Source: Bacteroidales bacterium (GTDB lineage: Bacteria; Bacteroidota; Bacteroidia; Bacteroidales; FEN-979). From it: 64,000 nucleotides of DNA. Each line of letters opens with the position of its first letter. Within the stretch, counting starts at the first letter, position 1. The notes below the pieces were generated by a model, which saw nothing but the letters and a program-made list of their open reading frames with translations, made no database searches and was not told the DNA's origin. The DNA is taken from positions 1,813,670 through 1,877,669 of the forward strand of contig OY759717.1 of assembly GCA_963662525.1 (NCBI GenBank), read 5' to 3'. Below, piece by piece: positions 1,832 to 10,907 of the stretch. Position numbers and translations under genes: made by a program.

Positions 1832-1864
1832 AATGATAAGTGTTTTCAGGGTGATATGATATTA

Positions 1865-4800
1865 TTACTGCACGAATACTTTACCCGAATAGGCCTTCTG
1901 GTTGGTTATGACCTTCACTAGGTAATAGCCGGTAACAGCATCCAGACTGATTTTTGTTAGCGCTCCCTCGTTTAATTTCTGCTGCATCATCTGCTGTCCC
2001 ATGAGGTTGTAAACAAAAACATCGCCTTTAACAATGGTCCCGGTATTATTTGAAATATAAAGGGTGTTGCCGGCAGAATAGATGGTAACGTCATTATCCT
2101 TTTTCGGGTCATTAATCCCCAGTGTTCCGCCGAAATGAAGGTTAAAACGTCCGGGAGAATCATTTACGGAAGCAGCGAACGAATAGGACGGCTCGTTTTG
2201 CAAATTAATTGTTTTTGAAGCCTGGATATCTTCCAGTAAAATGGTAACCGTGGGGAAGAACGTATTTTCCTTCACGCTGATGGTATAATTTTCATCTTTA
2301 CCCACTTTTAACTCAAGCGGGACTACCACTTCGGAGTTGGAATACGGGAGCACATCAATTGAAAGTTCTTCGTCGGAAGCCCGGCAATAAAGCTGGGGCG
2401 CAGCGGCATCGCCATACATCTTGCGAACATCAAAACGACCATCATAAGCGGCTGTTGCTTCATTGTTGAAGTTCACCACGATACCATCCTTATATCCGTT
2501 TCCTTCAACATTAAGCAGAAGAACATCCTGAACTGATTCTGTGGATTTGTAATAAAATTGGGCGTTGTGAGTCCGGGCCGTATTTGGTATGGTAAGGGAA
2601 GCCGCTCCTTCGGCGCTTACCTTGACCCAGAATCCCTGCATGGCAGGAATGATTCCACCAGTCAAAGACCCGATGCTCCCATTCCATGTCAGATATTCGC
2701 CATTATAATACACCCAGATAGAGTTATCGACATTGGTTTTGGTCCAGGTATCTATGCTCCCGTTCAGGGCCGAGGGATAAGGATTTCCTAAGAGATTATA
2801 TCCGGAGCCCTTACCGGTTGTGTAGGATAAAGCAGGAACCGTTCCTGTCCCCGTGGGATAGTCGCCGCTGTTGAGTGTTCCGGCAAAGTCCTTGCTTGCT
2901 CCAGCCGCCCAGGATACAAGATAACCTTTTCCCGGCAGGTAAGAAGCATCGGGGAAGCTTCCACCATTGTCATTCAGCCAGAGGTTGTTTGTTTCATCCC
3001 AGGCATACATATCGGTATATCCGGCGAAAATACTTTGTGAAGAAACCGGCGCCGACATCAGATGCCAGGCCGGACCGGATATCATGCGCGTTATCGTAGC
3101 GCCTCCGCTAACCGTTCCGTTGGTGATCAGGGACCCGCCTTCGTTGATAACAAGGGCGGTATTGTCGCCGGAGTTGGTAAGGGTGCCGGTGACGGTAAGG
3201 GCTGCATCAGAATTAATTGTCAGGCTTCCTGTCGCATTGATGTTCACCGTACCGCCACTGATTGTTTTATTGGAAGTTATATTTACGGCGGAACCACTGT
3301 TAATAACAAGTCCGTTTACTCCCAATGACAAAGTTCCGGCACCACCAATTTCTGCAGTTGCCCCGGAAATAATCCATTGCCCATTAGAAGATTGAGACAT
3401 TGTACCAGTGCCAATAATTCCATTCCGGAATGTTTTAGTACCAGTGCCATTCCATGTGAATGATGAATTAGCCTCAATTTTTCCGTTGATGACTGTTGCA
3501 TTGCTACCTCCCGGTGAGCTAGTCAAAGCTGTTATTCTAAAGATTGGGATTGTATTTACGTCTACATTAGGAAAATAAGTTACTCCAGAGGAGGAAAATG
3601 TCGATGTTGATGTATATTCCAGAATCGAGCCAGTTCCATAGATAAAATTTGCCAAGTTGACACCTGTTCCGTTTCCTGTCATGCCTGTAGTAGAAACCCT
3701 TAAAATTCCATTTGTATTAATAGAACAAGTTGCACTGGAGCTATAAGATGGTGTTGTTGCTGCCAGATTAAATACTCCACCATCATTTATTATAATGTCA
3801 TCTCCGGCTCCATTGTTCACAGTCAGGGTCCCTCCGCTATGTGTTAGCACACCACCTGATTGAATAATAACCTGATCTACTGTAACATTTGCTGTTATAC
3901 TCACAGTATGATCATTTAGGATTGTAATAGAGTTCGCATTGTAGTCAGGAGTTAAAGTGGCATTAATCCAAGGATCATTTCCGTCGGGTGATGATTCCCA
4001 GGTTCCGGTCGAAGCCCAATTTCCAGTTGCTTTGCTTCTGAAATAATCTGTAGCTGATGAGCTGGTTGCAGGAGTTGCGTTTGCTGTAACCCCAGTACTC
4101 CAATTTGTCCCCTTACGGGTAAAAAACGTGTAATAATATTCCGTTCCATTTGTGAGACCTGTTACCGTTTGTGGGGATGTTGTTCCTTTGTAAACCACGT
4201 ATCCACCATCAAAACTAGTGCCCTGAGTGTAAATCAGATCAGCAGTATAAGCCAAGCCATCTCCACTGGGAGTAGCAGTTACAGCGCTACCAGCTTTTGC
4301 AACAATCATGATTTCATCAACGCATCCTGTAGGATTAGCCCACGAAAGAGAAGAAGATCCAGAGATAATACTAGCAGCCTGGCCAGAAACATTGTTTGCT
4401 CCATTAGCAATTTCAAAAACCGAACTGGAAGACCCTGTAATCACAGGAGAATCACAATCAATACGTATTTTGTAACCCGTACCAGATGAAGTGCCTGCCG
4501 GAATTGTAACATCTATGCTGCCGGACGGGTCTGTGCCAGAAACAGATGTTGTACCGATATTTGTTGGTGAGGAAAAATCACCGCTGGCATTGGAAAGATA
4601 TGCCGTAAAAGTTGCCGAAGAATATGTGCCAGTAGTTGTGTATGCTACTGTTCCTGCCGAAGTATTAGTTAAATCAATACAAAAAGGAGGAGAAGAGACT
4701 ATCCCTGTTGTTATAGCATTACCACCAGAAGTAGTTACAGTCCCAGTTAAATTCAGGGTATTATCATTAATTCTCCAAGTGCCGCTTGTGGCCTCAGCCG

Positions 4801-5275
4801 AATAACCGTACCATCTTATCTTTAAAGTTTGTCCTTCCACAACATCAATATCAAGCCCTGTTATATTTCCAGTTCTTTCTTCAGTATTATCAGGGACACT
4901 GACAGTTGCTATTGTATTCGAATTAGAAAAATTATCAATTGACCACCTTACCTGATAATTCCTGATTCCCGTACTAGATCTTCTTTCTCCAAAATTTACA
5001 GCAGAAATTTTAATTATATAACCAGAATTTGGTGTTACAGAAATTTCAAAATATTTCCCAGTATTAATTGCTCCTGTAGACCAATTATCTGCATATGCTC
5101 CGGATGCTCCAAATGTTAGAGTTCCAACCCCTATTGCTGTGAATGCTGTAGCTGTAATATTTTCATTAACCCCCGAGGGATTACCGTTGCTCGTTAATAC
5201 CCAATTAGCAATCTGTCCCCACCCCGTGAAATTCAATGAAAACAATAAAACCAAAAGTAAAAACCACTTTTTCAT
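1865..5275 (-). CDS. Giant secreted adhesin-like protein with a T9SS type-A C-terminal sorting domain (1136 aa)
   Basis: N-terminal signal peptide MKKWFLLLVLLFSLNFTGWGQ. Ser/Thr/Gly-rich Ig/FN3-like segments. C-terminus ...VTIYSAGNTLYISNN...VFVYNLMGQQMMQQKL...GYYLVKVITNQKAYSGKVFVQ is typical of the Por secretion tail. The C-terminal ~480 aa are paralogous to 7617..10907 and 35375..39367. Confidence 0.85.
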   Translation of the reverse strand: MKKWFLLLVLLFSLNFTGWGQIANWVLTSNGNPSGVNENITATAFTAIGVGTLTFGASGAYADNWSTGAINTGKYFEISVTPNSGYIIKISAVNFGERRSSTGIRNYQVRWSIDNFSNSNTIATVSVPDNTEERTGNITGLDIDVVEGQTLKIRWYGYSAEATSGTWRINDNTLNLTGTVTTSGGNAITTGIVSSPPFCIDLTNTSAGTVAYTTTGTYSSATFTAYLSNASGDFSSPTNIGTTSVSGTDPSGSIDVTIPAGTSSGTGYKIRIDCDSPVITGSSSSVFEIANGANNVSGQAASIISGSSSLSWANPTGCVDEIMIVAKAGSAVTATPSGDGLAYTADLIYTQGTSFDGGYVVYKGTTSPQTVTGLTNGTEYYYTFFTRKGTNWSTGVTANATPATSSSATDYFRSKATGNWASTGTWESSPDGNDPWINATLTPDYNANSITILNDHTVSITANVTVDQVIIQSGGVLTHSGGTLTVNNGAGDDIIINDGGVFNLAATTPSYSSSATCSINTNGILRVSTTGMTGNGTGVNLANFIYGTGSILEYTSTSTFSSSGVTYFPNVDVNTIPIFRITALTSSPGGSNATVINGKIEANSSFTWNGTGTKTFRNGIIGTGTMSQSSNGQWIISGATAEIGGAGTLSLGVNGLVINSGSAVNITSNKTISGGTVNINATGSLTINSDAALTVTGTLTNSGDNTALVINEGGSLITNGTVSGGATITRMISGPAWHLMSAPVSSQSIFAGYTDMYAWDETNNLWLNDNGGSFPDASYLPGKGYLVSWAAGASKDFAGTLNSGDYPTGTGTVPALSYTTGKGSGYNLLGNPYPSALNGSIDTWTKTNVDNSIWVYYNGEYLTWNGSIGSLTGGIIPAMQGFWVKVSAEGAASLTIPNTARTHNAQFYYKSTESVQDVLLLNVEGNGYKDGIVVNFNNEATAAYDGRFDVRKMYGDAAAPQLYCRASDEELSIDVLPYSNSEVVVPLELKVGKDENYTISVKENTFFPTVTILLEDIQASKTINLQNEPSYSFAASVNDSPGRFNLHFGGTLGINDPKKDNDVTIYSAGNTLYISNNTGTIVKGDVFVYNLMGQQMMQQKLNEGALTKISLDAVTGYYLVKVITNQKAYSGKVFVQ

Positions 5276-5370
5276 ATATAATATTTTAAAATGTGACGAG
5301 ATATAATTTCTGGAGCGATAAAAATAGGAAGATATTTTGAAATAACGTATTTATTATTTTTGCGTTTGTT

Positions 5371-5890
5371 ACCCACCCCCCGACCCTCCCGGGAAACCGG
5401 GACAAGCTCTCCCTACGAGTAGGGAGGGGGAGTGCCAGGTTCATCCTTAAGCTTTTTCCTGTTTTTAGGGAGGTGTTTTTTTCTGTTGCACTGGCTTTTT
5501 CCATTGGTATAATGTTGGTAAAAGTATGAGTAAATATTTTTTGATATGTTAATGGTGAGTTAAGTTTTTGGTACCCACCCCCCGGCCCTCCCGGGAAACC
5601 GGGACAAGCTCTCCCTACGAGTAGGGAGGGGGAGTGCCAGGTTCATCCCTAAGCTTTTTCCTGTTTTTAGGGAGGTGTTTTTTTCTGTTGCACTGGCTTT
5701 TTCCATTGGTATAATGTTGGTAAAAGTATGAGTAAATATTTTTTGATATGTTAATGGTGAGTTAAGTTTTTGGTACCCACCCCCCGGCCCCCTCCCTACG
5801 AGTAGGGAGGGGGAGTGCCAGGTTCATCCCTAAGCCCCTCCCTATTTATAGGGAGGGGTTTGGGTGGGCACCGAAGGCTTGGGGTGGGTA
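5371..5890 (+). repeat. 202-bp tandem direct repeat: two full units (5371..5572, 5573..5774) plus a diverged third copy that runs into the 3' end of DUF559 gene A
   Basis: Units 1 and 2 differ at only 2 of 202 positions. Each starts with the GC-rich box ACCCACCCCCCG(A/G)CCCTCCCGGGAAACCGGGACAAGCTCTCCCTACGAGTAGGGAGGGGG followed by ~130 bp of AT-rich sequence. Unit 3 (from 5775) lacks the CCGGGAAACCGGG hairpin and diverges after ...catccctaagc. Confidence 0.95.
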
Positions 5891-6245
5891 ACATCCCCCT
5901 GATCTTACCCAGCACCTTTTCCATCTCTCCGATCTCATCATTTTTAAACCGGATAATTTTTATCCCCAATGCCCTGATGTTTCCCTCCCGCCATTGATCA
6001 TAAGTTTTGGCATTATCATGATAAGAGCCGTCGACTTCAACAACAAGTTTTGCTTTCGGGCAATAGAAGTCAGGTACAAAAAAGTTCAGGTCGTTTCCCT
6101 GCCTGTCGTATAGCAGCGGATGCTGACGGAGAAATTTATAACCCTCCAGTTGCCGGTCTTTTAGTTTTGCCCACAATAACTTTTCATACCCGGTTTGCCG
6201 CCGCCGGAGTTTCCGGGATAGTCTTTTTATTTCGACGTATTTCAT
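5796..6245 (-). CDS. DUF559 (Vsr/PD-(D/E)XK-like) endonuclease-domain protein, copy A, with a repeat-encoded C-terminal extension
   Basis: Motifs LWAKLKDRQLEGYKFLRQHP...FFVPDFYCPKAKLVVEVDGSYH...IRFKNDEI are typical of DUF559. The last ~30 aa (PTPSLRCPPKPLPINREGLRDEPGTPPPYS) are read from the GC-rich hairpin repeat. Confidence 0.8.
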   Translation of the reverse strand: MKYVEIKRLSRKLRRRQTGYEKLLWAKLKDRQLEGYKFLRQHPLLYDRQGNDLNFFVPDFYCPKAKLVVEVDGSYHDNAKTYDQWREGNIRALGIKIIRFKNDEIGEMEKVLGKIRGMLPTPSLRCPPKPLPINREGLRDEPGTPPPYS

Positions 6246-6254
6246 TTTGTCCCA

Positions 6255-6304
6255 TTTTCTGCTTAATCCGGGAAAACGGAAAAGGTAATACGTTTGTTGA
6301 AAAG
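6255..6304. repeat. 50-bp dispersed box, copy 1 (TTTTCTGCTTAATCCGGGAAAACGGAAAAGGTAATACGTTTGTTGAAAAG)
   Basis: Near-identical copies at 6848..6902 and 7386..7439. It lies 10 nt upstream (minus-strand sense) of the start of DUF559 gene A. Confidence 0.9.
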
Positions 6305-6352
6305 TTTTTACCTCAGGTCTTTGTAGAATGGTTTTGCCGCGTACTTTGCTTT

Positions 6353-6757
6353 TCAGGCATTTTTCAGGTGGTTTTTGACTGCGTCGCTAATTTTTTTTGA
6401 TACTTTTCTTTCGTTTTTTAATATTTCTTCATTTCTGAAACGGATTACCGTTAATCCGAAATTTTCAAGTTCTGTGGTTCTGTTCAAGTCCTTTTCCTTT
6501 TGTTCTTCCGAATCATGAACAGAGCCGTCAACCTCGATAACCAGCCTGAGTTCATGACAATAAAAATCAACGATAAATTGACTGATTGGGTGTTGTCTGC
6601 GGAAAATAAATCTGTTCAATCTTTTTTTTCTCAATTCCTGCCATAGAATTTTTTCACATAAAGTTGTTCTGTTGCGCAACTCCCTTGCCCTTGCAATTAT
6701 TTCGGGGCTTGCTCCGAAAAAAAACGCCTTTTCAACCGATTTGCCTAAGTATGCCAT
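6353..6757 (-). CDS. DUF559 endonuclease-domain protein, copy B
   Basis: Motifs ILWQELRKKRLNRFIFRRQHPISQFIVDFYCHELRLVIEVDGSVHD...VIRFRNEEI. Paralog of 5796..6245. Confidence 0.8.
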   Translation of the reverse strand: MAYLGKSVEKAFFFGASPEIIARARELRNRTTLCEKILWQELRKKRLNRFIFRRQHPISQFIVDFYCHELRLVIEVDGSVHDSEEQKEKDLNRTTELENFGLTVIRFRNEEILKNERKVSKKISDAVKNHLKNA

Positions 6758-6780
6758 ATATCCTTTATTAGCACATCAAA

Positions 6781-6846
6781 CCTCCTCCCTCCCCCTTGGG
6801 GGAAGCCTGTCCCGGTTTTCCGGGAGGTCGGGGTGGGGTAATCCTC
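6781..6846 (-). repeat. GC-rich double-hairpin box, inverted relative to the copies at 5371, 5573 and 5775
   Basis: The reverse complement (attaccccaccccgacctcccggaaaaccgggacaggcttcccccaagggggagggagg) aligns with ACCCACCCCCCGACCCTCCCGGGAAACCGGGACAAGCTCTCCCTACGAGTAGGGAGGG. Both hairpins are retained: TCCCGG-TTTT-CCGGGA at 6810..6825 and TCCCCC-TT-GGGGGA at 6790..6803. Confidence 0.85.
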
Positions 6847-6847
6847 C

Positions 6848-6902
6848 TTTTTCTGCTTAATCCGGGAAAACGGAAAAGGTAATACGGTTGTTGAAAAAAA
6901 AG
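6848..6902. repeat. 50-bp dispersed box, copy 2
   Basis: tttttctgcttaatccgggaaaacggaaaaggtaatacggttgttgaaaaaaa. It directly abuts the inverted GC-rich box. Confidence 0.9.
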
Positions 6903-6908
6903 TGGCGA

Positions 6909-7052
6909 TCAGCGATAGGTGATAAACGAAACTCCTGACGTTTCAGGGAAATTCTCAATTTGAATAATAATTCGTTTTAGGCTCCTCAAGACGGTAGTAT
7001 CATGGACTTTGTTCAAGGATTTATCAAACGATTTATCAAACTCAACAATCAT
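6909..7052 (-). pseudogene. Truncated RelE/ParE-family toxin (47 codons, C-terminal half missing)
   Basis: Hand translation gives MIVEFDKSFDKSLNKVHDTTVLRSLKRIIIQIENFPETSGVSFITYR*. The ATG overlaps the upstream stop as ATGA. The N-terminal ~38 aa fit RelE/ParE toxins, which are usually 85-95 aa. The reading frame runs into the GATAGGTGAT/GCGATAG repeat and stops. It is below the 60-aa ORF-track cutoff. Confidence 0.6.
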
Positions 7053-7246
7053 TTGCTTTCTAATTTATTCATAATGGACTCACGACTAACACTGTCTCCG
7101 GTCTTAACCTTATCCATAATAATCCCCAAGGCAAGATTCTCGAATTGATCTTCATTAATATTTAAAACATCAGCTCCAAGCTTTTTTGCCAACTCTTTGA
7201 GGATTTTTGTATTTTGATTATCAGCTTTAATAACGATTGCACTCAT
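7049..7246 (-). CDS. Small antitoxin-like protein (65 aa) paired with the truncated RelE/ParE gene
   Basis: MSAIVIKADNQNTKILKELAKKLGADVLNINEDQFENLALGIIMDK... resembles the small Bacteroidota antitoxin-type proteins found upstream of RelE/ParE toxins. It has a 4-nt ATGA overlap with the toxin remnant and its own TACCTTTG box at 7262..7269. Confidence 0.55.
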   Translation of the reverse strand: MSAIVIKADNQNTKILKELAKKLGADVLNINEDQFENLALGIIMDKVKTGDSVSRESIMNKLESK

Positions 7247-7261
7247 GATTGTGTTTTTTTA

Positions 7262-7269
7262 CAAAGGTA
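7262..7269 (-). promoter_or_regulatory. -7 promoter box (TACCTTTG on the minus strand) for the antitoxin/toxin remnant
   Basis: Exact TAnnTTTG match, 16 nt upstream of the ATG at 7246. Confidence 0.55.
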
Positions 7270-7385
7270 CAAATATTCTGAGGGCCATTAATTTTAACTT
7301 TCTGAAGCCAGCGGCTGCAGTTTTGGGAAATCGACTGATTTCAGCGCAGCATACTGAGCGTCGTGCATCCTCTGCTTTCATCATC

Positions 7386-7439
7386 CTTTTTCTGCTTCAT
7401 CCGGGAAAACGGAAAAGGTAATACGGTTGTTGAAAAAAA
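7386..7439. repeat. 50-bp dispersed box, copy 3 (orphan, no DUF559 gene attached)
   Basis: tttttctgcttcatccgggaaaacggaaaaggtaatacggttgttgaaaaaaag. One substitution relative to copy 2. Confidence 0.9.
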
Positions 7440-7474
7440 GCGGGTATCAGCTCCCGGCTTATTTGCCAATTCTT

Positions 7475-7621
7475 GGGAGAAGATGGGAGAACCCAGGGAG
7501 AAGATGGGAGAACTCAGGGAGAACCCAGGGAGAAGATGGGAGCCGGCAGGGAGAATCCAGCGTCACTAATGGGACTTTAATGGGAGGATAATGGGAGGAT
7601 AATTATTCCCTATCGCCTATC
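7475..7621. repeat. Cluster of short tandem arrays: GGGAGAA-based (7475..7556), AATGGGAGGAT-based (7568..7604) and CCTATCG (7609..7621)
   Basis: gggagaa gat gggagaa ccca gggagaa gat gggagaa ctca gggagaa ccca gggagaa gat gggagcc ggca gggagaa; then aatgggacttt aatgggaggat aatgggaggat. The cctatcgcctatc part contains the stop codon of 7617..10907. Confidence 0.9.
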
Positions 7622-10600
7622 TGACCATCACCTTCCCCGAATATGTCTTTTCCGGGGTGATCACCTTTACCAGATAGCACCCGGGGCGGGCATTCAGTTC
7701 GATCTTTGTCAGCTCACTGCCGCTCAAAGGCTGATGAAGGATTTGCTGGCCGAGGAGGGAGTATACCGATAGAGAACCGTTTGATAGAGAAACATTATCT
7801 GTTTGGATAAAAATCTGTTTCCCATCAGAATAGATTACAAGATCGTTCTTATCGGGGGTTTCGGTAATTCCGATAGCACCTCCGAAGTGCAGATAAAACC
7901 TATCCGGATCATCGCTAGTATTGGCAGGAAATGAATAGGATGATTGAAGCATTAAATCCTGGTTCAGATCGTTTTTTTTATCTTCCAGGATAATACTGGT
8001 ACCGGAAGGAAAACTGTTCAGAAAATCAGCAGTCAGGGTATAAGTCGCATCAACACCCGCACTCAGACTAAGAGGAATAGTCTGAGGAGAAGGGATTCCC
8101 CGAAAATCAATAGCGTATTTCTGATCAATTTTTGGCACATACAATCCTGGGGAATAATCATACAGACTGAACCATTTTTCAGCCCCTCCTTGTGAAGTCT
8201 CATGTCCGAACTCAATAATCACTTCATCGGAATAAGGATTAACAGAATTTGTAACCTTCATTTTCAGGACATTGCTTAGTCCTGTAACAGATTTCAAGTA
8301 GGTGGGATTTTGATGTACCCTTACGCTGTTAGTCATTGAAAGAGAACCTTCAGCAGAAGCCTGAACAAAGAATCCTTGTCCGACAGGAACATATCGTGTA
8401 ACACTATTGGTTCCACTTGAAGAAGCGCTGTTAAAGGTACCATAGTTTCCTGCTGCTTCGTTCCAGATCCACATATTGTAACCACCTCCGCTCAAATTCA
8501 GACTTGTTCTTGTCCAACCCGAAGCTGCTTTCCAGTCGATTGCCGAAGGATAAGGATTCCCGATCAGGTTAGAACCTTTATAAGCGTCAGTACCACTGTA
8601 TGATAAATCAAAATCAATCGGTCCATTATTAAGAAGTCCAGTGAATGATTTATTCTGGCTTGTTGCTTCATAAGCAACAAGGTAACCGCGACCGGGAATA
8701 AACTCACTGCCATTGGCAGTGCTAAAAGTGGGTTCAATGGTTGTATTTTTAAAATTTACCCATTGTGAAGTTAGTTCATCCCAACAATAAAAATCATAAT
8801 TGGAACCTCCCGGAACAAACTCAGAACCTGCAATGGCCATTGATACCGGAGAAGAAATCAGATGCCAGGCATTACTTACCCCAGGGATATATCTGTTCAC
8901 TGTGGCTGGAACATAGTCGGAATTGTGAATCAGGGAACCGCTTCCCGTGGCGTCCGAAGCAATGACCAATCCTCCGTTACCAACATTGTTGGTTAAGTTT
9001 CCGTTGACGGTCAGCTGTTTGCCTACCGGAATGTTTAAAGTCTCTCCGGCACCAATGGTGAGGTTCTGAACGGTGGCGTTCTGGCTAATTGTGGTTGTGT
9101 TCGCCAATGAGAAACTCCATGAGGGAGTGGCCAGAATGCTGCTGCTCGTTGTCCAGTTTACAGGATTTGCAATGAATGAACCAAGGGAGTTTATGGAACC
9201 CCCTGAAATTAAATTATAATTACAATTTTGACCAGTGATATTAAGTGCATTAACATTGTCCGTGAGAACAGAAGGCAAATATGATGTATTTGAGGTTGCT
9301 GCACCCGAAGTCAACCAGGATGCATTCCCAAAATTGACGCCAAATAGTAATATCTGGTTAGAATTCCAAGTGCCCTGAAAGGCAAAAAGCTGGTCTCCGC
9401 TGACAGAAAATTGAAATGATCCGGAAACAGCAACCCAATCTCCTGATGCAGAACCGCTTATCCAGGAAATGACTGTTCCCGCGGAGATTGTGGTCGGAGC
9501 AGTATAGGAAATTACTCCTTCCCCAATCCTGCAAGTTGTTGCATTTAAAAACCCATTATCCGTAAAATTAATAACAGTATTGGGGCTTAGTTGTTTTAAT
9601 GTAATAAATGAAAATTTATCAGGATCAGTAGCTCCAGCCTCGATAATTGCGATATCTCCAGCCTGAAGAGAACTCGTTCCAGCTGTCGTTGCCAGTGAAG
9701 TAGTTTGTATGTTGCCATCCGTTTTATAATTGATAGCAGTTCCAGAGTTGGTGTAGGAGTATATTTTAAAGTAATAGGTGGTACTTGCCGATAAGCCAGT
9801 AAAGGTATAGGCTTGTGAACCATAGGGTATGTTTTTATTTAACCCTCCGTCAGTAACTGCAGTGCCATCTGCCGGATCAGTTATTGCTGCAAAACCGCTG
9901 GTACTCCCTTTGATCAGGTAGCCATCCGGGAGCACAGCCCCGGTTGCATCCGTCCAGGTAAGGGCGATGGCATTGTAAGATGGATTCCCTGCACCGGAGG
10001 TATAAGCCGATGGATGGTTGCTGGGTTCTGCCTTTATTCCGCCGGGAGCCCAAACCTCGGTAACGTATTCCTCGTGGTCAATGTATGGATTGCGGTTGTG
10101 TTGTATGGCATACACGGCATTGTTGCGGTCGATTTCCTTGGCCGAAACCGGATCGGATGCATTCCATTCAATAAGCATATTTTTGAACCAGGTTTCAAAA
10201 GCCGGGTAAGAAGTCCCATTGAGGATGGCATCTGCATAAGGATCATTCGCAGGCCAGGAAGCAATCAGGTCCTGGTATCGCGTTGCCATATAAAAGTAAG
10301 CCCGTGCAAAATCGCCTTTGTATTCATCGAGTGGTTCAAATACGGTGCCAGTATAACCAGGATATGAGCAAGTCCCTCGTTTACTGCCATTTTGTGAAGT
10401 ATAAGCTGGGGCAGATACGGTTCCGTAAGGGTAATTGTTATGCCCGGTGCCGTTTACGTACTGGTCAACCGGAAAAAGATGGTGAAGGTCGGTGTACATG
10501 GGGGGTGCACTGTTGAAGTAGCTTTTCGGAAAAGAATGTTCCCTGCTGTAACAGTCACCTTCCTGATAACTGGTTCCACACTGGCTGGTCCCAAGGGTGT

Positions 10601-10907
10601 ATTCATAGGATGGTGTTCCGCCGGGCACATCGGAATACATATCCCATACCTTCCCATTGGGTTTTACATCGGTAGTAAAAAAAGCATTCCATACACCAGG
10701 GGTATAACTTACCGGGGTATGATTGGTTTTGATGATGTTATAGAGCGCCATCTGTAGCTCAGCCCCCGTTTTTCCAATGGCTGCATCATAATATCCCGGC
10801 GGTATCTGTGCAGGTAAGGAATGAAAGAAAAAAAGAAGAAAAATGGCGAGTGACAGGGACCGCGATAAACGCGGAAGAGAAGGGTTGTTAGGGGGAGAAA
10901 TGTTCAA
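7617..10907 (-). CDS. Secreted Endonuclease I-family nuclease fused to FN3/adhesin-like modules and a T9SS type-A sorting domain (1096 aa)
   Basis: Signal peptide. N-terminal region ...CYSREHSFPKSYF...MYTDLHHLFPVDQYVNGTGHNNYPYG...FEPLDEYKGDFARAYFYMATRY matches the Endonuclease I (EndA/Vvn/Bsn-type) active-site blocks. C-terminus LVIYSDGKQIFIQ...LSVYSLLGQQILHQPL...GCYLVKVITPEKTYSGKVMVR is a Por tail. Confidence 0.85.
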   Translation of the reverse strand: MNISPPNNPSLPRLSRSLSLAIFLLFFFHSLPAQIPPGYYDAAIGKTGAELQMALYNIIKTNHTPVSYTPGVWNAFFTTDVKPNGKVWDMYSDVPGGTPSYEYTLGTSQCGTSYQEGDCYSREHSFPKSYFNSAPPMYTDLHHLFPVDQYVNGTGHNNYPYGTVSAPAYTSQNGSKRGTCSYPGYTGTVFEPLDEYKGDFARAYFYMATRYQDLIASWPANDPYADAILNGTSYPAFETWFKNMLIEWNASDPVSAKEIDRNNAVYAIQHNRNPYIDHEEYVTEVWAPGGIKAEPSNHPSAYTSGAGNPSYNAIALTWTDATGAVLPDGYLIKGSTSGFAAITDPADGTAVTDGGLNKNIPYGSQAYTFTGLSASTTYYFKIYSYTNSGTAINYKTDGNIQTTSLATTAGTSSLQAGDIAIIEAGATDPDKFSFITLKQLSPNTVINFTDNGFLNATTCRIGEGVISYTAPTTISAGTVISWISGSASGDWVAVSGSFQFSVSGDQLFAFQGTWNSNQILLFGVNFGNASWLTSGAATSNTSYLPSVLTDNVNALNITGQNCNYNLISGGSINSLGSFIANPVNWTTSSSILATPSWSFSLANTTTISQNATVQNLTIGAGETLNIPVGKQLTVNGNLTNNVGNGGLVIASDATGSGSLIHNSDYVPATVNRYIPGVSNAWHLISSPVSMAIAGSEFVPGGSNYDFYCWDELTSQWVNFKNTTIEPTFSTANGSEFIPGRGYLVAYEATSQNKSFTGLLNNGPIDFDLSYSGTDAYKGSNLIGNPYPSAIDWKAASGWTRTSLNLSGGGYNMWIWNEAAGNYGTFNSASSSGTNSVTRYVPVGQGFFVQASAEGSLSMTNSVRVHQNPTYLKSVTGLSNVLKMKVTNSVNPYSDEVIIEFGHETSQGGAEKWFSLYDYSPGLYVPKIDQKYAIDFRGIPSPQTIPLSLSAGVDATYTLTADFLNSFPSGTSIILEDKKNDLNQDLMLQSSYSFPANTSDDPDRFYLHFGGAIGITETPDKNDLVIYSDGKQIFIQTDNVSLSNGSLSVYSLLGQQILHQPLSGSELTKIELNARPGCYLVKVITPEKTYSGKVMVR

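Follow-up and report, generated by a model that had tools for sequence, protein, structure and literature searches.

The question raised by this locus is what connects two small genes of the DUF559 nuclease family (DUF559-A and DUF559-B) with the GC-rich, hairpin-forming boxes that lie around them. Both genes stand in a window of 64,000 nt (the whole stretch of DNA that was analysed), which is part of a 1.78-Mb contig of a metagenome-assembled genome (MAG; ENA ERZ21878447, ctg45473l) and carries cargo genes of the type IX secretion system (T9SS) and PID_CTERM genes, i.e. a Bacteroidota-type gene content; the locus, flanked by two T9SS cargo genes, is an island of accessory genes in the genome of an uncultured Bacteroidota bacterium. 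A reading made from the letters alone (the sequence-only reading) had taken positions 5775-6902, with both genes and the boxes on either side, for a possible selfish cassette. Following comparison with related loci, it seems probable that what recurs is a different arrangement, in which DUF559 genes under selection are framed by repeats of the intrastrand triplex motif (TM) type, with the two-gene bracket being secondary and the 50-bp box that precedes each gene being an independent module. The two genes and the GC-rich boxes are:

5796..6245, minus strand: DUF559-A, 149 aa, predicted Vsr-fold nuclease with the D..ExD..H motif intact; ratio of non-synonymous to synonymous substitution rates (dN/dS) 0.08 against locus L005
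6353..6757, minus strand: DUF559-B, 134 aa, intact; L003, L005 and L024 have its orthologue at the syntenic site
5774..5890, no strand assigned: closed element made of two TM-type units in inverted orientation, bounded by the terminal inverted repeats TACCCACCCC/GGGGTGGGTA; extends over the final ~32 codons of DUF559-A
5371..5430, plus strand: composite GC box copy 1, with C-tract TACCCACCCCCC, hairpin 1 CCTCCCGGGAAACCGGGA and hairpin 2 CTCCCTACGAGTAGGGAG; in unit 1 of a 202-bp tandem repeat
5573..5632, plus strand: composite GC box copy 2, within the second 202-bp tandem unit; the best match to 6781-6848 as an inverted repeat
6781..6848, minus strand: composite GC box before DUF559-B, with C-tract TACCCCACCCC and hairpin 1; its hairpin 2 has another sequence

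That the two genes are paralogous, Vsr-like members of DUF559, as the sequence-only reading had it, is borne out by their matches to Pfam PF04480 (E 3.5e-28 and 2.8e-36; 98.1 and 124.1 bits against a cut-off of 20.6) and by an identity of ~41% between them. Residues D64, E75, D77 and H81 are invariant across 45 sequences, both window proteins among them, and the nearest solved structure is PDB 3HRL (profile match, E 1.3e-28). Homologous or comparison loci were fetched and given L-numbers, L003, L005 and L024 being relatives that carry orthologues of DUF559-B; homologues of DUF559-B that are 90-95% identical in protein exist in related contigs. Synonymous divergence (dS) among the B orthologues is 0.12-0.67 with a dN/dS of 0.06-0.08 (0.22 for the closest pair), and for those at the same site dS is 0.4-0.67 with a dN/dS of 0.06-0.08. 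Judged by these ratios, both genes are under strong purifying selection and, as predicted nucleases, read as functional, vertically inherited genes kept at a fixed site, not as decaying passengers.

The GC boxes are, by their build, members of the BoxC/PIT/TM class, in a sequence family different from the TMECO repeats of E. coli; the hairpin fold is computed and the triplex putative. According to Holder et al. (PMC4666352), a TM consists of a C-rich block and a G-rich block separated by a loop, with a second G-rich block that follows after a loop of 3 nt. A scanner of that build, in which the second G-block was required to mirror the first, matches the window at 5836-5869 and finds two to seven units in each of L003, L005, L024, L035, L036, L038 and L116, against no match in 20 shuffles of the window; positions 5775-5812 fit the build by eye. 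The closed element at 5774-5890 forms two hairpins (computed ΔG -76.4 kcal/mol, z -5.5), and a homologous element lies behind the DUF559-A orthologue in L005 (1537-1650). In agreement with the sequence-only reading, the GC element on this side is also translated, residues ~118-149 of DUF559-A (its last ~32 residues, a Pro/Gly tail) corresponding to 5796-5890. A search of Rfam gave no family for the boxes, whether with the gathering threshold or with E values of up to 5.

With the BoxC/PIT/TMECO repeats (Holder et al. 2015, PMC4666352) the window units share the succession of pyrimidine block, loop, complementary purine block, short loop and mirror purine block, and also the occurrence as single or inverted-pair units that are intergenic, mark rearranged loci and have no known enzyme. 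They differ in sequence, as the TMECO consensus CCCTCNCCC-N3-6-GGGNGAGGG-N3-GGGNGAGGG is not found and the window units read CCCCTCCCTA..TAGGGAGGGG..GGGTGGG (with CCCCTCCC../GGGGTGGG in place of CCCTCNCCC/GGGNGAGGG), in the composite build of three window copies, and in that the units here and in relatives flank a DUF559 gene, a point absent from PMC4666352. A further likeness is to palindromic units inside genes: GC-rich palindromic units stand in frame within open reading frames (ORFs) of low-GC phage contigs, and DUF559-A has its Pro/Gly tail. Rickettsia palindromic elements and other intragenic miniature inverted-repeat transposable elements (MITEs) are such palindromic units inside genes, the Rickettsia elements differing from the present units in sequence family and host phylum. 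We know of no mobilising enzyme for Rickettsia palindromic elements or for TM-type units; earlier work on BoxC/PIT repeats is said to go back to Bergler (1992) and to Hoyne and Maher (2000). Single TM-type units were seen in frame in ORFs of 339-540 aa on the low-GC phage contigs L154, L161, L171, L178 and L185, and a DUF559 tail in L116, LAPPRPSPRGEGA, is likewise a translated TM unit.

The association with DUF559 recurs. In seven independent lineages or contexts a DUF559 homologue has TM-type units within 300 nt, namely in the B group, the A group, L035 (where the gene adjoins antiporter-like Proton_antipo genes), L036 (between PID_CTERM and C25 peptidase), L038, L039 (between AMP-binding and haem-binding genes) and L116 (Algoriphagus, with two identical tandem copies). 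Single DUF559 genes stand between inverted TM arms in L024, L036 and L039, the arms in L039 matching over 19/21 nt, and in window A, L005 A, L116 and E. coli ycjD the 3' TM abuts the stop of the gene or extends into its final codons. No TM unit was found in the rest of those loci or in the other ~60 kb of the window, and none in ~100 kb of DUF559-free loci (Bacteroidales-type MAGs, fetched via the 50-bp box) except for one gene-less pair in L010; loci with ORF6N genes or with genes of 23S rRNA intervening sequences (23S-IVS) and without DUF559 also had no TMs. Such a distribution gives good support to a non-random link between GC boxes and DUF559 genes.

Several of these loci show repeat-associated structures of their own. 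In L116 (Algoriphagus aquaeductus), positions 1838-3800 hold the two identical genes in a ~620-bp tandem duplication among repeated nested hairpins; in L038 a ~250-bp direct repeat (3560-3810 and 4535-4790) flanks the DUF559 module together with its box and TM units; and in L035 a ~240-nt inverted repeat with several TM units (1-480) lies upstream of the DUF559 gene. The gene-less inverted TM pair of L010 (5040-5200) retains ~12 nt, GTGCTAATAAG, of the DUF559-B leader, and may be an internal-deletion derivative.

The pairing is also met in E. coli. The DUF559 gene ycjD of strain K-12 ends in a TM-like hairpin, and TMECO no. 9 (1,351,204-1,351,239; Table 1 of Holder et al., PMC4666352) lies 168 nt downstream of it, a proximity for which the chance is ~0.004, given 23 TMECOs in 4.64 Mb. 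Of 5426 complete E. coli genomes, 3378 carry the gene, in a single copy. TM places are more frequent where ycjD is present (median 13 in 37 ycjD+ genomes versus 3 in 23 ycjD- genomes; chimeric query; Mann-Whitney p 1.5e-6). In the K-12 interval between ycjD and fabI (L233, 3810-3870), a degenerate second copy of the last ~55 nt of ycjD precedes TMECO no. 9.

A number of observations limit this association and weigh against the reading favoured here. Many TM units stand without the gene: when viral contigs were scanned for CCCCACCCCRRCCCTCYCC, more than 116 loci matched, and DUF559 is absent from all of the 80 that were fetched. Of 16 units in low-GC viral contigs, nine lie within a long ORF, and in five cases the unit ends 0-5 nt after a stop codon (L172 belongs to both groups, three units to neither). 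Conversely, DUF559 occurs without TMs in 69 phage loci and in a homologue from an imuB-dnaE2 operon. The polarity of the arms is inconstant (L035, L038 and L116 differ), the three composite copies (5371, 5573 and 6781) carry an additional CCCGG hairpin and are not canonical TMs, and copies outside the locus are few, with no TM units elsewhere in the 64-kb window and the window's hairpin modules on two or three other contigs of equal depth in the source metagenome run (X1). The contrast in TM places within E. coli follows phylogroups and therefore rests on few independent events; ycjD replaces eefRABCD in phylogroups A, B1 and C (PMC12817139), and O157:H7 is without ycjD yet has ~12 TM places. 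Neither cleavage nor mobility has been observed. Two samples were set aside: the phage DUF559 loci are too distant to count as additional cases (28-64% identity, mostly 30-47%, without TMs), and O157:H7 does not serve as an E. coli empty site, since eefRABC-type genes replace ycjD there, which is a region replacement and not a precise excision.

A rival account is that there is no functional link at all, and that TM/BoxC units are generic elements resembling repetitive extragenic palindromic (REP) sequences, linked to terminators or to genome instability, which pile up in permissive, recombination-prone intergenic islands where DUF559 genes are tolerated as ordinary repair nucleases (Vsr-like T:G mismatch repair) or defence nucleases. 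In favour of that account are the many DUF559-free contexts, with TM units directly after stops and in frame in phage ORFs; the island, seen across the window and its relatives, also carries ORF6N and toxin-antitoxin genes, and no mobility genes are found near TMECO, for which a link to local instability only is reported (Holder et al., PMC4666352). Likewise, the Caulobacter DUF559 protein VsrA acts as an SOS-induced Vsr-like enzyme (PMC12907096), and a DUF559 63% identical to B lies in a LexA-controlled imuB-dnaE2 operon without TMs. Against it, a TM occurs within 300 nt of DUF559 in seven lineages and near ycjD, the other intergenic regions of those loci being without TM; in four cases that are not related to one another the stop codon is abutted or overlapped by the 3' unit; and DUF559-free loci with ORF6N or 23S-IVS genes also lack TMs. 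We regard the absence of any functional link as rather unlikely. The operon just mentioned was seen in L110-L115 (2501-2938 in L110), where the DUF559 homologue is part of an SOS mutagenesis operon, 4 nt behind an imuB-like gene and 27 nt before dnaE2, with a LexA-like repressor gene adjoining.

TM repeats recurrently frame DUF559 genes, and each gene would therefore form one DUF559-TM module with a layout like that of a REPtron. As with REPtrons, which consist of a REP-associated tyrosine transposase (RAYT) gene and its REP sequences (Di Nocera et al. 2013, PMC3733652), a nuclease gene that is present in one copy and has been retained vertically under selection lies between inverted structured repeats, and the repeat is also found elsewhere without the gene. 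The differences are that the present nuclease has a PD-(D/E)XK Vsr fold instead of the Y1 HUH tyrosine-transposase fold of the RAYT, that the repeats are without a GTAG tag, that no Y1_Tnp homologue was found in the window by tblastn, and that the inverted arms enclose two genes in the window. A RAYT link was rejected for the relatives as well: the Y1_Tnp of L004 is an insertion of the type of insertion sequence IS200 with different hairpins, and that of L036 is without TM flanks. REPtrons and RAYTs have reportedly also been treated by Nunvar (2010) and by Bertels and Rainey (2011). The L004 gene itself (650-1170) has its own GCGGGG-type hairpins and is inserted in an ORF6N remnant just upstream of the DUF559-B orthologue.

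In such a module, we infer, the DUF559 nuclease would act on structured TM DNA, and this activity would drive the gain and loss of TMs and local recombination and keep gene and repeats linked. A functional DUF559-TM partnership of this kind, be it REPtron- or homing-like, is a tentative proposal that we regard as rather unlikely. Its general form, that small DUF559 nucleases are the missing partner enzyme of BoxC/PIT/TM repeats from Bacteroidota to E. coli (ycjD), REPtron-like and of Vsr fold, not Y1, is likewise rather unlikely. If true, DUF559 would be responsible for the spread, turnover and local instability of TM repeats, in-frame gene insertions included. DUF559 is a very common family with almost no assigned function, and BoxC/triplex repeats have had no enzyme or role assigned for some thirty years; a reproducible gene-repeat pairing makes the roles of both testable in E. 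coli K-12. A literature search gave no report of a DUF559-TM partnership.

A more specific version is that of a homing-type cassette, in which one DUF559 gene has inserted into the middle of a palindromic TM pair; pairs that are still uninterrupted would be cut by the nuclease and would receive a copy of the gene through repair. Consistent with it are gene-less inverted TM pairs beside genes (window 5774-5890; L005 640-690 and 1537-1650), the L010 pair with its ~12 nt of B-type 5' leader and no gene, and a weak similarity to the homing endonuclease I-Bth0305I (PDB 3R3P, 7.8e-6) and to the PADLOC homing-endonuclease model. With the EDxHD homing endonucleases (I-Bth0305I, 3R3P) and the Vsr-like repair nucleases (Caulobacter VsrA, PMC12907096) the window proteins share fold, catalytic motif and the form of small free-standing genes; they differ in having no associated intron, intein or conserved target gene, nor was a homing polymorphism observed or a linked cytosine methyltransferase seen in the island. 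Against homing stands the fixation of B at one syntenic site over a dS of 0.4-0.67 (dN/dS ~0.07), as well as its apparently single-copy state, with no second copy on the 1.78-Mb source contig among the 120 best homologues listed. Moreover, both arms of DUF559-A are on its 3' side, and among the relatives no filled-versus-empty pair with precise ends was found, so that the presence/absence polymorphism that identifies a homing endonuclease gene is missing. Homing is therefore improbable in our judgement.

The remaining possibility is the original one: positions 5775-6902 would be a composite selfish element whose ends are inverted GC boxes and which carries the two genes along when it moves. 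In its favour, both genes do lie within inverted GC boxes here, and the matches between the boxes are far above chance. The sequence-only reading placed the box in plus orientation at 5371, 5573 and 5775 and inverted at 6846..6781; for the first two copies this stands, the inverted box 6781-6848 being ~84% like them over ~62 nt, and it does not for the innermost plus copy at 5775, where hairpin 1 is missing (a 22-nt gap), so that this copy pairs with the inverted one over hairpin 2 alone (22/28 nt). The innermost inverted repeat is thus weak. The good inverted-repeat partners are the two copies within the 202-bp tandem repeat, outside the proposed cassette (38 nt, 82% complementary, for the 5573 copy and 6781-6848), and the 6781-6848 box corresponds to the 5' TM array of B in relatives. 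The outer ends of 5775-6902 show no direct repeat (flanks TTTTTGG versus TCCTCCT). As the sequence-only reading had already stated, no transposase or integrase is present: tblastn found no Y1, rve or ORF6N homologue in the window, and no integrase was seen at the locus. A transposon of the IS or MITE type was rejected, given the weak innermost inverted repeat, flanks without a direct repeat, and DUF559-A and DUF559-B proteins that were found on one contig each.

The related loci contradict the two-gene unit directly. The syntenic locus L024 runs from the 3' end of the endonuclease-I gene through tandem arrays, one 50-bp box, an intact HigB/helix-turn-helix (HTH) pair and four GC units (ACCCCACCCC-NN-CCCTCCCCC-loop-GGGGGAGGG) to DUF559-B, followed by three GC units in opposite orientation and the adhesin gene, without DUF559-A and without the inner boxes. 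In L003 an ORF6N remnant is followed by B, with GC units on either side of it, and then by the adhesin gene, and L005 has a box, ORF6N, A and a GC pair, then a partial duplicate of A (A') with its GC pair, and then a box, ORF6N and B between GC units. A and B are therefore not a conserved pair and their order differs, being opposite to that of the window in other relatives, with ORF6N genes between. B occupies the same site in all four relatives; A varies, and neither a clean empty site nor a target duplication was found.

The junctions of the window resemble deletions within an older array. Beyond the stop codon of B the sequence reads CAAAGAC/CTGA/GGTAAAAACTTTTCAACAA (also written CAAAGAC/CTGA/GGTAAAAAC), in L005 the corresponding GGTAAAAACTTTT joins the end of a GC unit to the beginning of a box, and behind each of the boxes A and B it is exactly the ORF6N gene that is missing. 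Relatives differ in the order and number of modules, and tandem duplications occur. Local deletions and rearrangement are consistent with the present layout: module B would have lost its 3' TM array by deletion, leaving the remnant junction, and the ORF6N gene would have been lost behind each 50-bp box; box A and module A now abut B, so that the outermost arms enclose two genes. With no relative holding the two-gene unit, no target duplication, no second copy and no transposase, the IR-bounded (inverted repeat-bounded) segment 5775-6902 as a single mobile unit is not supported, and we consider it very improbable. The window instead illustrates island remodelling through deletion and duplication between repeats.

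Four of four biofloc and biofilm metagenome runs (X4-X7) each hold two DUF559-A alleles, ~99% and ~89% identical to window 5940-6231 and of similar depth. The same runs hold 5240-7765 at 95-99% identity, with the flanking adhesin genes not present at 85% or more. A joint 6246>7299 in runs X4/X5 has only 30 nt on one side, is ambiguous and was not used.

The 50-bp box is a separate matter. Its copies, and the gene pair that lies between two of them, are:

6247..6306, minus strand: box A, ending ~10 nt before the ATG of DUF559-A
6841..6900, minus strand: box B, joined without a gap to a TM hairpin that is truncated, GGAGGATTACCCCACCCC (junction checked against L005 and L024)
7380..7439, minus strand: box C, the third copy, upstream of a non-DUF559 gene pair and with a heptamer array upstream
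6909..7246, minus strand: small gene pair, 65 aa and 47 aa, without a Pfam match for the window ORFs

The sequence-only reading had noted the box before each DUF559 gene, and the cores at 6259-6303 and 6853-6897 indeed agree with 0-1 mismatch in 45 nt (0 matches expected by chance); a third core, at 7392-7436, precedes the non-DUF559 pair. Because an exact 22-mer of the core gave no match in 185,579 species genomes, a degenerate pattern (CAACAA-N8-CCTTTT-N10/11-GGATTAAG) was used. It found eight true loci in species genomes (Draconibacterium, Prolixibacteraceae, Bacteroidales and unclassified MAGs) plus one chance match in Shewanella, and 16 loci in JGI metagenomes, of which one (L030) is apparently a further chance match. 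Orientation is constant, and the ATG follows mostly 11-21 nt downstream, sometimes ~40-280 nt. The genes behind the box include ORF6N, 23S_rRNA_IVP, PDDEXK_3, Gp49/HigB, DUF2851, a PolB-type exonuclease, a sigma factor and T9SS adhesins, and in related biofloc and biofilm metagenomes the box stands in at least 6-8 contexts per run. Of the two repeats whose co-occurrence with DUF559 was in question, the GC units do co-occur with it, in seven lineages, and the 50-bp box precedes many other genes. By its neighbours, the box is not DUF559-specific and is a separate, generic upstream module of accessory genes; we read it as a putative promoter-like or leader-like module.

Other identities for the box were rejected. 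As an attC site or structured RNA it has no fold above shuffles (z -0.09), and an integron cassette array is not indicated, with no GTTRRRY core site in the box and no integrase seen. The spacing does not fit the canonical Bacteroidetes -33/-7 promoter, and it is downstream of box C and of the L024 box that canonical TAnnTTTG boxes are found. A profile of 24 box instances finds only the three window copies in 64 kb, which speaks against a general housekeeping promoter.

All genes of the region are on the minus strand. In order of transcription, the endonuclease-I/T9SS gene (7617-10907) is followed by short tandem arrays, box C and the 65-aa and 47-aa pair, then by box B, the inverted GC box 6848-6781, DUF559-B, box A and DUF559-A, and finally by the closed GC element 5890-5774, two 202-bp tandem units with a GC box each and a T9SS gene of 1136 aa. 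The pair at 6909-7246 is probably a toxin-antitoxin remnant, as an intact HigB(Gp49)/HTH pair lies at the same place in L024. Tandem arrays of 7-11-nt units (GGGAGAA, GCGATAG, GGGACGC, GTGACGC and others) are found at window 7464-7610 and 6904-6925. In several Bacteroidales-type MAGs the upstream gene's stop codon is followed by such an array and then by a T-run and the 50-bp box, a layout that recurs in L014, L015, L018, L019, L024 and L027.

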